A DNA stretch of 64,000 nucleotides from a phage, in sequence record PQ327946.1, one strand, 5' to 3'. The notes beneath the pieces were generated by a model. The model did not search any database. It was not told the origin of the DNA and was given only the letters and a program-made list of their open reading frames with translations. Shown one piece after another: positions 22,361-62,584 of the stretch (the stretch's first letter is position 1; each line of letters starts with the position of its first letter). The translations under genes were made by a program, and so were the position numbers.

Positions 22361-22389
22361 TTTTAATCTCCTCATGTTTTGATAGGTCT

Positions 22390-22419
22390 ATAGTAACACA
22401 ACGCTTTTTGTGTGTAAAC
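22390..22419 (-). promoter_or_regulatory. early (sigma70-type) promoter for the 88-aa ORF and segD-like gene
   Basis: Minus strand GTTTACA-N17-TACTAT, then leader ...CAAAACATGAGGAG. Confidence 0.6.
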
Positions 22420-22425
22420 CACTTT

Positions 22426-22433
22426 TATAAATA
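22426..22433 (+). promoter_or_regulatory. late promoter (TATAAATA) for gene 24
   Basis: TATAAATA 31 nt upstream of gene 24 ATG. Confidence 0.7.
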
Positions 22434-22463
22434 AAATTATATTCTCAATAAGGAAAAAATGCA

Positions 22464-23747
22464 ATGAGTAAAATCCAAAAATTATTGCGTGAATCTACAA
22501 CGTCTATTAGCAACTCAATTGGTCGCCCAAATCTCGTTGCTTTGACTCGCGCTACGACTAAACTAATATATTCTGACATTGTAGCAACACAAAGAACTAA
22601 TCAACCTGTTGCTGCTTTTTATGGTATCAAATATCTTAACCCGGATAACGAATTCACATTTAAAACTGGTGCTACTTATGCTGGCGAAGTTGGATATGTA
22701 GACCGAGAAAAAATTACTGAGCTCACAGAAGAATCAAAAGTCACACTAAATAAAGGCGATTTTTTCAAATATAATAATATCGTCTATAAAGTGTTAGAAG
22801 ATACACCATTTGCAGATATTCAAGAAAGTGATCTAGAATTAGCTCTTCAGATTGCGGTCGTTCATTTAAAGGTACGGTTATTTTCAGATGCAGCGGTAAC
22901 AAGCAAATTTGAAAGCTCTGATAGCGAAATTTCTGATGCAAGATTCCAGATTAATAAATGGCAAACTTCGGTCAAATCTCGTAAACTTAAAACTGGACTC
23001 ACGGTTGAATTAGCGCAAGATTTGGAAGCGAATGGATTTGATGCCCCTAACTTCTTAGAAGATTTGCTTGCTACTGAAATGGCTGATGAAATTAATAAAG
23101 ATATTCTTCAGTCTTTAATTACTGTATCGAAACGTTATAAAGTTACTGGAATTACTGACACCGGATTTATTGACTTGAGCTATGCATCCGCTCCAGAAGC
23201 AGGTCGTTCATTATATCGAATGGTGTGTGAAATGGTATCACACATTCAAAAAGAGACAACTTATACTGCAACGTTTTGTGTAGCCTCAGCTCGTGCAGCT
23301 GCTATTCTTGCTGCTTCCGGTTGGTTGAAACATAAGCCAGAAGATGACAAGTATCTTTCACAAAATGCTTATGGATTCTTGGCAAATGGATTACCTCTTT
23401 ACTGCGATACCAACAGCCCGTTAGATTATGTTATTGTGGGTGTTGTAGAAAATATCGGTGAAAAAGAAATTGTAGGGTCCGTCTTTTATGCTCCATACAC
23501 TGAAGGAGTAGATTTAGATGACCCGGAACATGTTGGTGCATTTAAAGTTGTAGTTGATCCAGAAAGCTTGCAACCGTCTATCGGATTATTGGTTAGATAT
23601 GCTTTATCAGCAAATCCTTACACAGTAGCAAAAGATGAAAAAGAAGCGAGAATAATTGATGGCGGGGACATGGATAAAATGGCAGGACGTTCAGACTTGT
23701 CTGTTTTACTCGGTGTTAAATTGCCTAAAATTATCATTGATGAATAA
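22464..23747 (+). CDS. 24: capsid vertex protein gp24
   Basis: 427 aa, gp23 paralogue; T4 gp24 size and position; TATAAATA upstream. Confidence 0.93.
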   Translation: MSKIQKLLRESTTSISNSIGRPNLVALTRATTKLIYSDIVATQRTNQPVAAFYGIKYLNPDNEFTFKTGATYAGEVGYVDREKITELTEESKVTLNKGDFFKYNNIVYKVLEDTPFADIQESDLELALQIAVVHLKVRLFSDAAVTSKFESSDSEISDARFQINKWQTSVKSRKLKTGLTVELAQDLEANGFDAPNFLEDLLATEMADEINKDILQSLITVSKRYKVTGITDTGFIDLSYASAPEAGRSLYRMVCEMVSHIQKETTYTATFCVASARAAAILAASGWLKHKPEDDKYLSQNAYGFLANGLPLYCDTNSPLDYVIVGVVENIGEKEIVGSVFYAPYTEGVDLDDPEHVGAFKVVVDPESLQPSIGLLVRYALSANPYTVAKDEKEARIIDGGDMDKMAGRSDLSVLLGVKLPKIIIDE

Positions 23748-23776
23748 AAAAAAAGGGACCTTACGGTCCCTTTTTT
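23746..23776. terminator. bidirectional intrinsic terminator between gene 24 (+) and rnlB (-)
   Basis: A9-GGGACCTTACGGTCCC-T6: hairpin with A-run and T-run on either side. Confidence 0.8.
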
Positions 23777-23777
23777 A

Positions 23778-24785
23778 TTATGATACTAATTCAATCCATG
23801 CAGGACGCAGAACATCTTGCACCATTCGGACCAATTCTTTCTTAACAAGATTCGGATTATCAGATGATGTTAATACAATACCTTCACGAGAAGTTTCTTC
23901 CAGAATATCTTGAACAGTCAATCCCATCACTTTGCCAAAATCTTTTGGCGTTACAGTCCCAATCTTAGAAATCACATTATTAACACGATTTAATGTAACA
24001 TAACAAGCTAGAACATTAAGCAAGTTTTTGTCAATTTCGGTTAATGGAACCTGAGTTTTAATAGGCTTATCAGACTTTTTCTTTTCACTGAATTTAGAGT
24101 TCTTGCACTTAATAGCTACACGAGTACCGTTTGGCAGCCATTTAGGGAAACAAGGCTTCAGAACATAACCTTCTGCTGTATTATCGCCAATAACATTAGC
24201 ATCAAATACACAATTATTTGCTTCGACAAGGTCTTCTGACGCAGTAGCATTATAAGCGGCTAAGACTGAATCAAGGTCATTTGGAATCATGATAAGAGAA
24301 TCAAATGTTCCACGACCAAGCATTGGTGCCATTTTAAAACCAAACGTATTACAGAAATCTTGCATTTCGTAATCACTCATATAATAAGTATCATCACTTT
24401 CCGTGTTTATGATGATATCGAACACATAAAAATCTTTTTCACCGTAGTCAACACCTTTCTGGATTCCACCACCGGCGAATTCACCAAAGACTTGATATGA
24501 CACCGGCACTGAAGTTGAAATACTTTCCATAACTTCTTGAACACCTTTAATAGCTTTATCATACTTCTTGAGTACGATTTCATAGCCGTAAAAATCTTCT
24601 GCTGGAAGAATAGGGCCTGTGCGCTTGGCGCATGTGACGTTGTCACGTTCAATTATTAACGAGAAGTTGGTCCCATGGATTTTCTCACGTGCTACCCAAA
24701 CACCAGTAGTCAAACCATTAGTGTAGAGTTTTTCAATAAACTTGGAGTTGTAGTGGTTTTCAAGACTGCTGTATTTCTTAAACAT
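23778..24785 (-). CDS. rnlB: RNA ligase 2 (Rnl2)
   Basis: 335 aa; [20 protein letters not shown]... and KIHGTN nucleotidyltransferase motif I as T4 Rnl2. Confidence 0.93.
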
Positions 24786-24877
24786 AAATCACCATTATAA
24801 ATAATAATATCAAAATAATTAGCAGAGACTCTGTCTCCGACCCAATGTTTAATTTGAATGGATAGAACCTAGATTCA

Positions 24878-60965: not shown

Positions 60966-61572
60966 ATTTTCCGCCAGTAGCTATTTCATTTTTATATACT
61001 GATTCTGTAAGTGTTGTTACTTCATCTATTTTATACCAATGCGTTTCAACCATTTCACGTTTGCTTATATCATCAAGAAAACTTGCATCTAATTGAACGG
61101 TTGAATTAACACGATGCCTTTTAATGATACGAGAAACGACTACTTCATCTGCATAAGGTAATGCAGCATATAACAGAGCAGGTCCGCCAATTACACTGAT
61201 GTGATTTTCGCTGGCATCGATAAACGTTTCAAAATTTGTATTAGGACTGGATAATTGAATACGTCCACCGGCTACTAAGGTAACATACTCATCCCAGGTA
61301 ATATAAAAATGAGCCAAATCACCGTCTTTAGTTTCAGGATAGCCACGTTTAATATCACATACCACCACATGGCTACGACCAGGAAGTAATGTAGGCAATG
61401 ACTGGAACGTTTTAGCACCCATAATCATAATTGTACCTTCGGTACGAGCTTTAAAATTCTGAAGGTCCTTTTTAACTCGTCCCCATGGTAAACCATTACC
61501 TAAACCGAATGCTAATTCATTAAAGCCTTCAACCGATTTAGTTGGAGAATAGGCAAATACCAATTTAATCAT
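60955..61572 (-). CDS. frd: dihydrofolate reductase
   Basis: 205 aa; [60 protein letters not shown]... matches T4 Frd. Confidence 0.95.
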
Positions 61573-61575
61573 TAC

Positions 61576-61857
61576 TCAAAACCCCTTTTCAATAAACCAT
61601 TCAGTGGCTTTATTAGCGTCAAAGAATAACTCTTCATATGTCTTTTCTTTGTTTTCAAAAACTGTCACACAAACACGTTGACATTCTCCGCAGTATTCTT
61701 CTGACATACTCAAAGCGTCAGAAAACATTTCATTAAATTCACTTAAATCGGGATTATGCAATGCGTTAAAAATTGCATAATCGAATTCGTCATTCATAAA
61801 TTCAAATACAAAAATCATATTATTTTTCCTCAAACAGACTTTTTCACAATTTTCCAA
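61576..61857 (-). CDS. hypothetical protein (frd.1 position)
   Basis: 93 aa ORF upstream of frd; true start may be the internal MIFVFEF... Confidence 0.5.
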   Translation of the reverse strand: MENCEKVCLRKNNMIFVFEFMNDEFDYAIFNALHNPDLSEFNEMFSDALSMSEEYCGECQRVCVTVFENKEKTYEELFFDANKATEWFIEKGF

Positions 61858-62072
61858 TCAGCTTTAAACGATTCAATGTCAGAGTGGTAAATCCAGAATC
61901 CTGCACTTTCACCATCTTCATAGAGTGGACATCCATCGCATTCATCTTCCCAACCCATATCGCGTAAAAGATGTTCAGCTTTTTCAACAAGTTCAGCGTC
62001 TTTACCGACGATGTTGAAGTACCATTTACCTCTAACTTCAGAATCTTTGATGCTCTGGCGTTGCAATCTCAT
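61830..62072 (-). CDS. hypothetical protein (80 aa; frd.2 position)
   Basis: Start moved to MRLQRQ... (ATG at 62070-62072) with SD AAGGAG 7 nt upstream; the track's GTG start lies inside the SD. Confidence 0.55.
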   Translation of the reverse strand: MRLQRQSIKDSEVRGKWYFNIVGKDAELVEKAEHLLRDMGWEDECDGCPLYEDGESAGFWIYHSDIESFKADWKIVKKSV

Positions 62073-62104
62073 TTTATTCTCCTTCACTTTTATTTGATAG
62101 GGCT

Positions 62105-62134
62105 ACTATAACATAGCCCTATCTTGTTATAAAC
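62105..62134 (-). promoter_or_regulatory. early promoter (GTTTATA-N17-TATAGT)
   Basis: The -10 sits inside a 9-bp inverted repeat ATAGGGCTA...TAGCCCTAT. Confidence 0.5.
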
Positions 62135-62526
62135 TACTTTTTAAAAGTTTTTTGCAAAAGTTTGATGATTTCGTCGACGTTGGTTTCGTCTACGATACAA
62201 TGGATTTTTGTTACACCTAAAGTTATACCTTCGTTAGTAGGTTGAGGCTTTACTAAATCTACCTCAATAAAGTATTTGAACTCGTCAGGATAAATCTCAA
62301 AATAAGTTTCAATTCCACCACCGGCAGAACATACAGTACCATCTTCCATAGTTACACTTACTACGTTTGACGTATCGCTATCATAATCAGGTTCCATTCC
62401 GTTTACAACAAAACTAGGCCCGTGGAGTTCAATTAATTTTAACATCTTAGCGTTATTGTGTGGTGCTTCTTGAACAAAGTCGTCTTTAAATAAAGGGTTA
62501 ATGATATAAGATTTTCCGATTTCCAT
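62134..62526 (-). CDS. hypothetical protein (130 aa; frd.3 position)
   Basis: ORF with early promoter and leader CAACATGAGGAAATCAAA-ATG upstream. Confidence 0.6.
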   Translation of the reverse strand: MEIGKSYIINPLFKDDFVQEAPHNNAKMLKLIELHGPSFVVNGMEPDYDSDTSNVVSVTMEDGTVCSAGGGIETYFEIYPDEFKYFIEVDLVKPQPTNEGITLGVTKIHCIVDETNVDEIIKLLQKTFKK

Positions 62527-62555
62527 TTTGATTTCCTCATGTTGTTGATAAGTCT

Positions 62556-62584
62556 ATAGTATCATGTTTAAAGGAAAAGTAAAC
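62556..62584 (-). promoter_or_regulatory. early promoter (GTTTAC-N17-TACTAT) for the 130-aa ORF
   Basis: Minus strand GTTTACTTTTCCTTTAAACATGATACTAT, then leader TATCAACAACATGAGGAAATCAAA-ATG. Confidence 0.6.

Follow-up and report, generated by a model that had tools for sequence, protein, structure and literature searches.

Early promoters in the window

The window analyzed here is a stretch of 64,000 nucleotides of phage DNA (PQ327946.1) that shares 97.8% identity with Mosigvirus phages and is collinear with RB69; its source is an RB69-like (Mosigvirus) T4-type coliphage. Scanning with the pattern 5′-GTTTAC-N16-18-TAYWAT gives 10 exact matches, compared with 0.25 ± 0.46 in shuffled sequences, and all 10 are on the minus strand, the strand of the early genes (Table 1). 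The start of an early gene lies directly downstream at 11 or 12 sites, and RB69 contains 27 matches to the strict pattern, likewise all on the early-gene strand. The UP element, the −35, TGn, the −10 and a CCTATCAA block all stand out in position-wise information content. The sites are early promoters of the T4 type, built from an A-rich UP element, GTTTAC, TGn and a −10, and an earlier note that recognized a T-even early promoter family from its GTTTAC motif is borne out by pattern excess, strand and element profile. Nine of the ten sites it listed are exact matches (the one placed at 54123 is really at 54124), but that at 62105 is a one-off variant (GTTTAT/TATAGT). The TGTG that it saw frequently upstream of the −10 holds as TGn, found at 9 of 11 sites, although TGTG itself is present at only about five. 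Its description of the genes as delayed-early is mistaken, since genes located right after an early promoter are immediate-early in T4 terms (PMC2988021).

Table 1. Promoter cassettes and associated features in the window, with complementary arms where present.
Feature	Coordinates	Strand	Elements	Dyad or pairing
frd.2 cassette	62524..62584	-	-35 GTTTAC 62579-62584; -10 TACTAT 62556-62561; leader ATCAACAACATGAGGAAATCAAA; ATG 62526	weak, spacer TTTTCCTT (62571-62578) with SD GAGGAAAT (62531-62538)
frd.1 cassette	62070..62134	-	-35 GTTTAT; -10 TATAGT 62105-62110; SD GGAGAATAAAATG	10-bp hairpin around -10, GATAGGGCTA (62114-62123) / TAGCCCTATC (62096-62105); -18.7 kcal/mol
rnlA cassette	54095..54153	-	-10 TACAAT 54124-54129	within spacer, TGCCACAA (54139-54146) / TTGTGGTA (54128-54135)
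alc cassette	52908..52970	-	-10 TACTAT 52941-52946; leader ATCAACAACACGAGGAGAAAATT	spacer dyad AACACC (52958-52963) / GGTGTT (52946-52951)
99-aa ORF cassette	51504..51564	-	-10 TATAAT 51535-51540	hairpin around -10, AGGAGCA (51544-51550) / TGCTCCT (51529-51535); -12.5 kcal/mol
cd.2 cassette	48606..48666	-	-10 TACTAT 48637-48642	hairpin TGGTGGAGTT (48647-48656) / AACTCTACCA (48627-48636), 10 bp including one G.U; -16.9 kcal/mol
30.8 cassette	45042..45114	-	-10 TACTAT 45086-45091	weak long-range pairing only, TTTACTCTCC (45104-45113) / GGAGAATAAA (45045-45054), one A.C mismatch
30.7 cassette	44599..44671	-	-10 TATTAT 44643-44648; SD GGAGAATAAAATG	11-bp hairpin around -10, TTGGTACAGGT (44654-44664) / ACCTGTACCAA (44630-44640); -19.7 kcal/mol
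65-aa ORF, probable early promoter	43527..43586	-	GTGTAC-N19-TATAAT at 43556-43586	
alt.-3 cassette	37705..37766	-	-10 TACTAT 37737-37742; leader ATCAACAACATGAGGAAAA	spacer palindrome ACACAT (37753-37758) / ATGTGT (37745-37750)
Cassette divergent from gene 24	22358..22419	-	-10 TACTAT 22390-22395	spacer dyad ACACAA (22408-22413) / TTGTGT (22396-22401)
Pattern match, status uncertain	25245..25274	-	exact match inside 24.3 ORF; no nearby SD/ATG	
Intrinsic terminator after gene 32	62616..62633	-	GGGAGACTTCGGTCTCCC + TTTT, canonical	

Several loci vary among relatives. The cassette at 22419 heads a leftward unit of an 88-aa ORF and a GIY-YIG Seg-like ORF, and with RB69 it shares the sequence upstream of the −35 but neither the spacer nor the downstream ORFs. 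The probable promoter of the 65-aa ORF reads GTTTAC in phage TH58 and borders a block that has been replaced in comparison with RB69. The match inside the 24.3 ORF, absent from the earlier list, is conserved in RB69 at 112437. The terminator after gene 32 is located just upstream of the 62584 promoter and has a U-tract, in contrast to the promoter-embedded hairpins.

The leader

The promoters share a short leader, but to call it near-identical, as had been done, is an overstatement. The 19-mer ATCAACAACATGAGGAAAT has only three matches with up to three mismatches (37712, 52915 and 62531; 0.02 expected); looser versions are present at two further sites, 22390 and 48637, and sites 44643, 45086 and 62105 have a different leader with a common ending, GGAGAATAAAATG. 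Near the start site the leaders have the CCTATCAA block in common, and they further share an A/C-rich stretch, a GAGGA or GGAG Shine-Dalgarno (SD) sequence and an A-rich spacer; by position-wise information, the −10 is followed by (a/g)nCCTATCAA, an A-rich stretch, GAGGA and an A-rich segment ending in ATG, and this is the part that is truly shared. ATGAGGA and CAACAA leader blocks recur across Mosigvirus, Tequatrovirus and Marfavirus. The suggestion that the leader itself is structured does not hold: the ten leaders folded alone have minimum free energies (MFE) of 0 to −3.5 kcal/mol, with MFE = 0 in six, and in nine of the ten structure does not exceed that of shuffles (z > 0).

Dyads in the promoters

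All four dyads that the earlier note quoted as examples are present where it placed them; the dyad at cd.2 (48627-48656) was missing from its examples. The dyads are real and promoter-specific, and they are non-random by two controls. When spacers and leaders are swapped between promoters, the cognate pairs fold better both in the window (−11.13 vs −8.17 kcal/mol, z −4.15, 1/5000 permutations) and in RB69 (−11.66 vs −8.65, z −7.4, 0/5000), and spacer-internal dyads exceed column-shuffled controls (−5.50 vs −2.67, 0/300 in the window; z −2.5 in RB69). Of 92 non-identical cassettes from seven genomes or regions, 52 form a stem of seven or more Watson-Crick pairs.

The arrangement of the dyads is variable. 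The arms differ in sequence (GGTACAGGT, ATAGGGCTA, AGGAGCA, CCACAA and GGTGGAGTT), in length (6–16 bp), in loop length (3–49 nt) and in arm spacing (3–50 nt), and the 3′ arm sits variously within the spacer, at the start site or over the SD; in 28 start-site hairpins it mostly ends 6–13 nt past the −10. The 5′ arm is always upstream of the start site, as placed from the −10, which would limit the hairpin to read-through RNA begun further upstream. At four promoters of the window (22419, 37766, 52970 and 54153) the only dyads are short and spacer-internal.

Conservation of pairing in related phages

It is complementarity that is kept in three genera, while the sequences change. Comparison of orthologues shows that the arms co-vary and that the dyads evolve by compensatory and G.U changes, not by sequence retention. 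The 30.7 stem has two compensatory pairs among seven orthologues and a 9-bp core with no broken pair; the cd.2 hairpin has a compensatory U-A to C-G change in JK42 and a G.U to A-U change in Ac3; and the RB69 and TH58 variants of the 99-aa ORF hairpin are A-U to G.U changes only. Pairing is kept with different sequences at cd.2, frd.1, alc and alt.-3 in Ac3 (Tequatrovirus) and Marfa (Marfavirus), and the frd.1 hairpin is also retained, with different sequences, in L020-L023. At rnlA, Ac3 has the MotA-box-like TGCTT in place of GTTTAC but retains the CCACA/TGTGG dyad. The partner itself can also change: the spacer pairs with the SD instead in the alc orthologues of Marfa and Ac3 (CCTCGTTTGTT/AACAAACGAGG and CCTCATGTT/AACATGAGG) and in a distant 30.7 orthologue, L019 (CTCCGTTGTAT/ATACAACGGAG). 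In the orthologue set as a whole, which includes near-identical and hence non-independent members, cognate halves have an advantage in folding energy of 2.24 kcal/mol over swapped ones (Wilcoxon p = 0.004).

Whether these are RNA or DNA structures is indicated less clearly. At 20 of 31 structured sites it is the sense strand that gives the more stable fold (for all 53 sites, Wilcoxon p = 0.096), and mismatches within stems are G.T in 30 cases vs A.C in 18. This RNA-strand signature is only suggestive, and the dyads may therefore have a role at the DNA level.

A proposed role in read-through RNA

The cassettes are ordinary strong early promoters with a short unstructured leader and one half of a hairpin in the spacer, a known type of regulatory cassette. 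We think it reasonably probable that the early promoter, the open leader, a hairpin confined to read-through RNA and a patch for recombination operate together. Host sigma-70 RNA polymerase would read the promoters immediately after infection, with the CCTATCAA block at the presumed start site. Each promoter is fused to an A/C-rich, structure-free leader of 20–45 nt with a strong SD (GAGGA or GGAG) and an A-rich spacer at its end, so that the promoter's own transcript would be translated at once.

The promoter spacer holds one hairpin arm, and the consequences for read-through RNA would depend on whether its partner is also in the spacer, is at the start site or covers the SD. Start-site hairpins, the main type in the window (44671, 48666, 51564 and 62134), may serve as intercistronic punctuation, folding the promoter sequence on itself such that the downstream ribosome-binding site remains accessible to the same degree as in RNA started at the promoter itself; protection of the upstream message at its 3′ end is another possible function. 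SD-reaching hairpins would instead mask the SD, and the gene would then be translated only from its own promoter. The latter are weak in the window (62584 and 45114) and strong in RB69 (7429, 20523, 61362 and 64920), T4 (8218), Ac3 (alc and alt.-3) and Marfa (alc).

Predicted probabilities that the SD is unpaired follow this division. With start-site hairpins the values are 0.50 in the promoter's own RNA, 0.48 in read-through RNA and 0.27 behind a foreign promoter (p = 2e-4), with no hairpin they are 0.50, 0.32 and 0.30, and with SD-reaching hairpins they are 0.39, 0.10 and 0.30 (p = 0.004), although the effect is seen only after the split by hairpin class, which is partly circular for the SD-reaching class. 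With all promoters pooled, SD accessibility is no different between cognate and foreign upstream halves (p = 0.30). The RNA-level control raised in the earlier note is plausible in read-through RNA only, a form it did not state, since the 5′ arm is upstream of the start site. The short spacer-only dyads at 22419, 37766, 52970 and 54153 fit neither proposed hairpin function well, and at 22419, where no co-directional gene lies upstream, no read-through is expected.

The whole cassette, at about 60–70 bp and with many repeats, would also be a homology patch for recombination through which small genes are inserted, deleted or swapped. At frd.2, RB69 has the same promoter plus an extra ORF, ORF245c, between two leader copies, where the window has one copy, and the frd.1 promoter is missing from L022 and L024, its presence varying among close relatives.

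Alternative explanations

The leader could be mainly a target of phage post-transcriptional regulators, with RegB cutting at GGAG in the SD and RegA repressing at the A/U-rich AUG region. This is possible though on balance doubtful, and it is compatible with the early-promoter and read-through-hairpin explanation, not an alternative to it. RB69 encodes both regB and regA, the leaders resemble RegA and RegB sites in being unstructured, and GGAG followed by an A-rich stretch, the RegB/S1 target context (secondary structure protects against RegB; PMC3014915), is present in 5 of 11 window leaders; the other 6 have GAGGAA without GGAG, RegA sites have no usable consensus, and the dyads are left unexplained. 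It is unlikely that the hairpins are instead terminators or attenuators acting on RNA polymerase from upstream and limiting the build-up of transcription along early-promoter arrays. They are intergenic and form only in upstream-initiated RNA, and terminator function was proposed and reporter-tested for RB49/phi1 PeSL (promoter-early stem-loop) elements, where the PeSL211/210 stem-loop of RB49 reduced lacZ expression to the same extent as the rrnB T1 terminator (Arbiol et al., PMC2839356), such that attenuation without a U-tract is conceivable. However, none of the 52 stems has at least 5 T in the next 8 nt, and the 28 start-site hairpins have a mean of 1.25 T in the 8 nt after the stem because the conserved leader is A/C-rich. 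In a terminator scan, the transcribed strand gave no hit at any of the four strong hairpins and a single hit at a weak spacer dyad (52946-52963), although the true terminators at 62616-62633 and 37385-37407 were detected. The stems are AU-rich, 7–11 bp long and, unlike those of RB49, without G/C tracts or a U-tract, which makes a terminator role doubtful.

That the dyads and shared leader are by-products of recent cassette duplication or recombination, as homology patches or DNA cruciforms with no function in RNA, is rather improbable. Indels are bounded by leader copies, the alt.-3 and alc cassettes of Ac3 are identical, RB69 has about 11 copies of the TAGGACTA-N8-TAGTCCTA type, and the strand-asymmetry tests are weak; but in three genera the orthologous promoters have changed both arms by compensatory and G.U substitutions without losing the pairing, and swapped halves of paralogous cassettes fold significantly worse. 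The ATGAGGA and CAACAA leader blocks also recur in the three genera and are older than any recent duplication. Least probable is a role of the dyads as operators at which a phage DNA-binding protein shuts off early promoters, even though ModA or AsiA do not explain T4 early shut-off (PMC2988021), a repressor would act at the spacer and −10, which the dyads overlap, and the TAGGACTA-N8-TAGTCCTA subfamily is conserved in sequence across its RB69 promoters. There is no common half-site: dyad sequences, arm and loop lengths and 3′-arm positions differ between promoters, which argues against the shared operator suggested earlier; the 3′ arm can sit 40 nt downstream, on the SD; and orthologues alter both arms with complementarity kept, including G.T pairs, which is not how operators evolve.

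Comparison with known systems

Nolan et al. (2006) predicted 57 early promoters in RB69, with GTTTAC, a UP element and C at −3 to −1 (PMC1524935), and the consensus elements, strand and gene neighborhoods in the window are the same as in these predictions and in T4 early promoters (Hinton 2010, PMC2988021). The C-rich positions just before the start site of the window cassettes were thus already noted for RB69. In the parts available to us, both descriptions end near +1, without a leader or complementarity between spacer and downstream sequence, unlike here.

The window cassettes match PeSL cassettes as published, both in their early promoter, stem-loop and SD and in having copies of the leader at the borders of indels. 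PeSL cassettes were described in RB49/phi1 (Arbiol et al. 2010, PMC2839356) and are also present in T4/PST and KVP40/nt-1 (Comeau et al. 2014, PMC4122927), and gene shuffling by cassette recombination is their published behavior. The parts follow one another in the same order (AT-rich upstream region, early promoter, stem-loop, SD, ATG); the stem-loop, as in RB49/phi1, is most often between the −35 and −10 or overlaps the −10; and in both cases there are many repeats on the early strand, beside small ORFs and bordering indels or replacements between close relatives. The −35 is T4-type GTTTAC here and TTGACA in RB49 PeSLs, and pairing between spacer and SD, found in a subset of the cassettes here, is a difference from published PeSLs. 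Neither PeSL paper mentions RB69-like phages or translation.

The closest parallel for masking is in T4 genes e, soc, 49 and I-TevI, which have the same geometry, a promoter within or after the 5′ arm of a helix covering the SD; the ribosome-binding site is masked in long transcripts and only the internal promoter's RNA is translatable (PMC3014915). In those cases the internal promoters are late or middle and expression is delayed, whereas here the internal promoter is early, so the logic would be restriction of translation to immediate-early RNA.

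Early promoters of the RB69-like genome

Between positions 44000 and 52000 the window shares 97.8% identity with Escherichia phage PNJ-9 and about 97% with HX01, JS09, and F2, all of which are RB69-like phages of the genus Mosigvirus. RB69 itself is collinear with the window from approximately gene 8 to gene 32, in blocks of 88-97% identity that are broken by indels. The late structural genes are on the plus strand at window positions 1-21 kb, and the region marked in the earlier note (22376-62584) contains early and middle genes on the minus strand.

The repeated sites in this region, put forward in that note as a family of early promoters, are promoters of the T4 early type. 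There are several characteristic features. First, the pattern GTTTAC-N16-18-TAYWAT has ten exact matches, all on the minus strand, compared with 0.25 +/- 0.46 in shuffled sequences; nine of the ten coordinates originally listed are exact and the remaining one, 62105, is a GTTTAT/TATAGT variant, while a further probable site at 43586 reads GTGTAC where phage TH58 reads GTTTAC. A T4-type early promoter is expected to have a GTTTAC -35 located 17-18 nt from a TAnnnT -10, and the ten exact matches agree with this, the GTTTAT and GTGTAC sites being variants of it. Second, the -10 is extended by a preceding TGn in 9 of 11 cases, and an A-rich UP element is present at about -40 to -45, the consensus 5' of the -35 being AAAAAgTa. 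Third, every site occupies the early-gene strand, ahead of and in the same direction as alt.-3, 30.7, 30.8, cd.2, alc, rnlA, frd.1, and frd.2, the gene names being taken from the collinear RB69 annotation. Finally, a generic sigma-70 scan shows no enrichment (65 vs 58.4 +/- 6.9; 33 vs 31.7), and it is thus the family-specific consensus that carries the signal. Nolan et al. (PMC1524935) predicted 57 T4-type early promoters in RB69, and Hinton (PMC2988021) reviewed the class, in which UP, -35, TGn, and -10 elements are accompanied by additional conserved regions. No mapped transcript starts were found for Mosigvirus in open-access papers, although such absence is no proof.

Two other sites deserve mention. 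One exact match outside the original list is intragenic, lying within the 24.3 ORF (25245-25274, minus strand; RB69 112437), and is kept in RB69; it has no nearby Shine-Dalgarno (SD) sequence or ATG, is followed by a small hairpin (CCGAGACAGCTCGG), and could either be a promoter internal to the ORF or have arisen by chance. The gene 31 leader (TATTATTAATCTATCGTCAAACAACAAGGAAATAAGATG; window 46322-46370, minus strand, 5' of gene 31) is similar to the early-cassette leader; a GTTTAC -35 was sought upstream of gene 31 and none was found, and the leader may lie behind a promoter of a different class.

The leaders downstream of these promoters share blocks of sequence but are less uniform than the near-identical leader that had been described: a 19-mer has three matches at three or fewer mismatches (0.02 expected), there are two looser versions, and three other sites end in GGAGAATAAAATG. 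Position-wise information content across 11 window and 42 RB69 cassettes identifies the common features as the A-rich UP element, GTTTAC, TGn, the -10, a later A-rich stretch, GAGGA, and an A-rich segment with the ATG, with a shared CCTATCAA block 4-11 nt after the -10. GAGGA, GGAG, or GGA together with an ATG is found 20-45 nt past the -10 at 11 of 12 sites. A T4 consensus for early promoters and ribosome-binding sites was reportedly published by Liebig & Ruger in 1989 (J Mol Biol), and is probably relevant here.

A structured conserved leader was considered and dropped, because leaders folded alone have a minimum free energy of 0 in 6 of 10 cases and show no excess of structure over shuffled sequences in 9 of 10. 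Nor is the leader likeness attributable to recent duplication only, as the CAACAA and ATGAGGA blocks recur across Mosigvirus, Tequatrovirus, and Marfavirus and must predate any such event. These blocks probably reflect a constraint that keeps the leader unstructured and poor in G and its SD strong. In 5 of 11 window leaders the target context of RegB/S1 is present, GGAG with an A-rich stretch after it, and RB69 encodes both regB and regA; RegA binding is not known to have a usable consensus. The cd.2 start codon is AGG rather than ATG in RB69 (134502-134547, compared with window 48606-48666), and its annotated start in RB69 appears to fall on the ATG within the ATGAGG block of the leader. In the 22419 cassette the leader ATG (22375) is in frame with an ORF starting at 22360.

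Inverted repeats embedded in the promoters

All four of the dyads quoted in the earlier note are present at the coordinates assigned to them, and there is another, unlisted, at 48627-48656. The complementarity was evaluated with chimeras in which the -35/spacer half of one promoter is joined to the -10/leader half of another and folded from the -35 to the ATG, such that the family consensus is kept. The cognate combinations fold better than the chimeras both in RB69 (-11.66 vs -8.65 kcal/mol, z -7.4, 0/5000 permutations) and in the window (-11.13 vs -8.17 kcal/mol, z -4.15, 1/5000 permutations). Dyads within the spacer likewise exceed column-shuffled controls (window -5.50 vs -2.67, 0/300; RB69 z -2.5). 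The complementarity is therefore promoter-specific, and not an accident of the ACA... and ...TGTG elements of the consensus.

To determine the arrangement of the stems, cassettes were taken from the window, RB69, JK42, TH58, Ac3, Marfa, and the first 50 kb of T4, which together supply 92 that are non-identical. A stem of at least 7 Watson-Crick pairs with its 5' arm starting in the -35/spacer region is present in 52 of the 92, and the 3' arm lies in the spacer or -10 (7 stems), in the discriminator and inferred start site (28 stems, with the arm mostly ending 6-13 nt past the -10), or in the SD (17 stems). The window contains four strong hairpins of -12.5 to -19.7 kcal/mol, all of the start-site type, with weaker dyads elsewhere; clear T4 examples are at 20612, 8218, and 15288. 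Because the 5' arm is in every case upstream of the promoter's necessary transcription start, these hairpins cannot form in the promoter's own RNA. There are no Rfam matches at the gathering score on either strand of positions 21000-64000.

Hairpins and dyads of the window cassettes, designated by the coordinate of the -35-side end
Feature	Cassette	Strand	Downstream	Stem
Hairpin, start-site type	44671	minus	30.7	11 bp, -19.7 kcal/mol
Hairpin, start-site type	62134	minus	frd.1	10 bp, -18.7 kcal/mol
Hairpin, start-site type	48666	minus	cd.2	10 bp including one G.U, -16.9 kcal/mol
Hairpin, start-site type	51564	minus	99-aa ORF (orf51506)	7 bp, -12.5 kcal/mol
Spacer-internal dyad	54153	minus	rnlA	6-8 bp (range for the four)
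Spacer-internal dyad	52970	minus	alc	6-8 bp (range for the four)
Spacer-internal dyad	37766	minus	alt.-3	6-8 bp (range for the four)
Spacer-internal dyad	22419	minus	leftward unit divergent from gene 24	6-8 bp (range for the four)
Weak spacer-SD match	62584	minus	frd.2	6-7 bp
Weak spacer-SD match	45114	minus	30.8	10 bp with A.C mismatch

Conservation of the dyads in related phages

Orthologous upstream regions were compared in RB69, JK42, and TH58 (Mosigvirus), Ac3 (Tequatrovirus), Marfa (Marfavirus), and IMG/VR contigs. Searches of IMG/VR through 30.7 and frd.1 gave only 5-18 loci, also with an alignment query, and GenBank phage records proved the more useful source. The dyads are retained in these relatives, with the arms changing while the stems are kept, and it is thus the structure and not the sequence that is conserved. 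The 30.7 stem GGTACAGG/CCTGTACC becomes GGTGTAGG/CTTACACC in Marfa, and across seven orthologues RNAalifold finds the 9-bp core free of broken pairs, with two pairs that are compensatory and several changes to G.U; the distant contig L019 has no such stem, and its 30.7 spacer pairs with the SD (CTCCGTTGTAT/ATACAACGGAG). In the cd.2 stem a U-A pair is C-G in JK42 and a G.U pair is A-U in Ac3, and in the orf51506 stem the only variants are A-U to G.U. Column-wise covariation worked for 30.7 but is unsuited to frd.1 and alc, because the hairpins of these two change in register or in class from one genus to another: frd.1 has differing stems around the -10 in Ac3, loci L020-L023, and Marfa, and alc has a weak spacer dyad in the window and spacer/SD helices of differing sequence in Marfa (11 bp) and Ac3 (at least 9 bp). 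Promoter halves were instead swapped between orthologues, and the swapped combinations fold worse by a mean of 2.24 kcal/mol (Wilcoxon p = 0.004), with the non-independence of near-identical orthologues diluting rather than inflating the effect.

Upstream of rnlA in Ac3 (L030, approximately 17080-17140), ATGCTTC is present where the window has GTTTAC, its TGCTT resembling the MotA box of middle promoters, and the CCACA...TGTGG dyad before the -10 is still present. It would seem that the dyad has outlasted a switch in promoter class.

Do the dyads act as RNA or DNA?

The recurrence of dyads within promoters had suggested a shared operator, or alternatively control at the RNA level. A repressor operator is expected to show a shared half-site at a fixed position, and none is seen; arm sequence, spacing, and position all vary, and the arms co-vary with one another, so that the operator idea is not supported. 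The dyads are not canonical intrinsic terminators, as none of the 52 stems is followed by at least five T residues within 8 nt, and the start-site class averages 1.25 T in that interval, the conserved leader being A/C-rich. The terminator scan does catch the true terminators of the window at 62616-62633 and 37385-37407. Read on the plus strand, the frd.1 hairpin (62096-62123) has a T-rich tail behind it, formed by the -35 and the A-rich UP element in complement, and the scan flags it as terminator-like; promoter-embedded hairpins might also stop antisense transcription.

Action in sense-strand RNA is somewhat favoured over action in DNA, though the comparisons between the two strands are only suggestive. 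At 20 of the 31 structured sites it is the sense strand that folds better (Wilcoxon p = 0.096 across all 53 sites), stem mismatches comprise 30 G.T versus 18 A.C, and substitutions among orthologues are mostly G.U-compatible. RNA-level control as initially proposed survives only in the form of an effect on read-through RNA, that is, RNA started at promoters further upstream; the structured leader in the promoter's own RNA does not.

Predicted effects on SD accessibility

The probability that the SD is unpaired was calculated for the promoter's own RNA and for read-through RNAs carrying either the cognate upstream half or the halves of foreign promoters. The foreign halves are needed as a control, since an uncontrolled comparison of own and read-through RNA is misleading in that a longer RNA always pairs more. 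With all promoters pooled, cognate and foreign RNAs do not differ (p = 0.30), and an effect is visible only after the promoters are split by hairpin class. For start-site hairpins (n = 18) the SD is unpaired at 0.50 in own, 0.48 in read-through, and 0.27 in foreign RNA (p = 2e-4), a result that is not circular, yet the foreign baseline is lowered by donor spacers carrying CTCC. SD-reaching hairpins (n = 9) give 0.39, 0.10, and 0.30, respectively (p = 0.004), a masking that is partly circular because the class is defined by SD-covering stems. Promoters without a stem (n = 23) give 0.50, 0.32, and 0.30.

The folding predictions suggest that a start-site hairpin may keep the ribosome-binding site as open as it is in the promoter's own RNA, and that an SD-reaching hairpin may mask the SD in read-through RNA. 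The spacer-SD helices of the relatives are 9-16 bp long, and the window has only the weak matches at 62584 and 45114. It is conceivable, if rather unlikely, that spacer-embedded arms constitute a general system of the Tevenvirinae (and Marfavirus) that acts on read-through RNA only and has two opposite settings, insulating or masking. In the insulating setting, start-site hairpins would leave the next ribosome-binding site in a polycistronic RNA as open as in the own RNA; in the masking setting, SD-reaching hairpins would limit translation to RNA from the gene's own early promoter, and the gene would fall silent once early promoters are shut off. If so, whether promoter-proximal early genes are translated would hinge on the promoter from which the RNA came, adding a further layer to the distinction between immediate-early and delayed-early genes in T4-type phages and bearing on the unexplained rapid shut-off of early proteins.

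Gene content and cassette-associated rearrangements

Indels and replacements between the window and its close relatives occur at the cassettes. RB69 ORF245c is situated between two leader copies (ATCAACAAATGAGAGGAAAATAAAATG and ATCAACAAATGAGGAAATCAAAATG) where the window holds one; the ORFs downstream of the 22419 promoter are unlike those of RB69, with the sequence 5' of the -35 conserved; there is a replaced block at 43345-44194 relative to RB69; and the frd.1 promoter is absent from two IMG/VR relatives, homology resuming at the SD. In Ac3 (L030) the cassettes before alc and alt.-3 (approximately 18271 and 33548) are identical over about 55 nt (GTTTACAAGTCCCTCATGTTGTGTTATAGTAGTCTTACTGACATAACATGAGGA), so that one cassette is present in duplicate at loci about 15 kb apart, and in each copy the spacer pairs with that copy's SD. 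The cassettes mark points at which small genes are gained and lost, and are useful for comparing or engineering RB69-like phages.

Several further indels have no relation to the cassettes and are insertions of homing endonucleases. Compared with RB69, the window has gained two such ORFs of the GIY-YIG Seg type, at 49350-50081 and 21431-22090 (both minus strand); the latter is part of the 22419-promoter unit between genes 23 and 24, and its match is weak (E = 9e-5, just under the Pfam cut-off). The nrdA gene, intact in RB69, is split into two ORFs (55821-58980, minus strand), with a 474-aa N-terminal part (57556-58980) containing the ATP-cone, the all-alpha domain, and barrel positions 1-221, and a 329-aa C-terminal part (55821-56810) containing barrel positions 219-523. 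Between them is a 236-aa ORF (56800-57510) with an I-HmuI/NUMOD-like endonuclease domain, an organization resembling the 'gene in pieces' associated with mobE in Aeromonas phage Aeh1. A DAHP synthase gene (47259-48251, minus strand; Pfam DAHP_synth_1, E = 6e-75) lies between cd and cd.2; it is not in RB69, is present in close relatives and in Klebsiella phage Marfa, and is a host-like gene of aromatic amino acid biosynthesis.

Relationship to known systems

The Mosigvirus cassettes belong to the known T4 early promoters and promoter-early stem-loop (PeSL) cassettes. PeSLs consist of an AT-rich region, early promoter, stem-loop, SD, and ATG, and are repeated in plastic regions where they mediate gene shuffling (Arbiol et al. 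PMC2839356; Comeau et al. PMC4122927); the full cassette here matches, and the usual place of the stem-loop is likewise from the -35 to the -10 or across the -10. Other PeSL traits are mini-circles arising by recombination between cassettes and a stem-loop that acts as a terminator or attenuator. Unlike the RB49 PeSLs, the cassettes have a -35 of the T4 type and AU-rich stems with no U-tract, and in a subset the SD is the pairing partner. The intergenic repeats of RB69-like therapeutic and typing phages can accordingly be annotated as PeSL-type early promoter cassettes, with their anatomy defined to the base level.

A possible novelty lies in the two opposite ways in which promoter-embedded hairpins are predicted, by computation, to affect the translation of read-through RNA. 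Neither PeSL paper mentions RB69 or translation, and the two settings are described neither there nor in the 2010 review of T4 post-transcriptional control; literature searches turned up no prior account of SD masking built into early promoters, with the caveat that absence from the open-access literature is not proof. Masking of the ribosome-binding site combined with an internal promoter is established for T4 e, soc, 49, and I-TevI (PMC3014915), where late or middle promoters are used, whereas the cassettes described here carry early ones. The two-setting arrangement would thus be the early-promoter counterpart of the T4 e, soc, and I-TevI switch.
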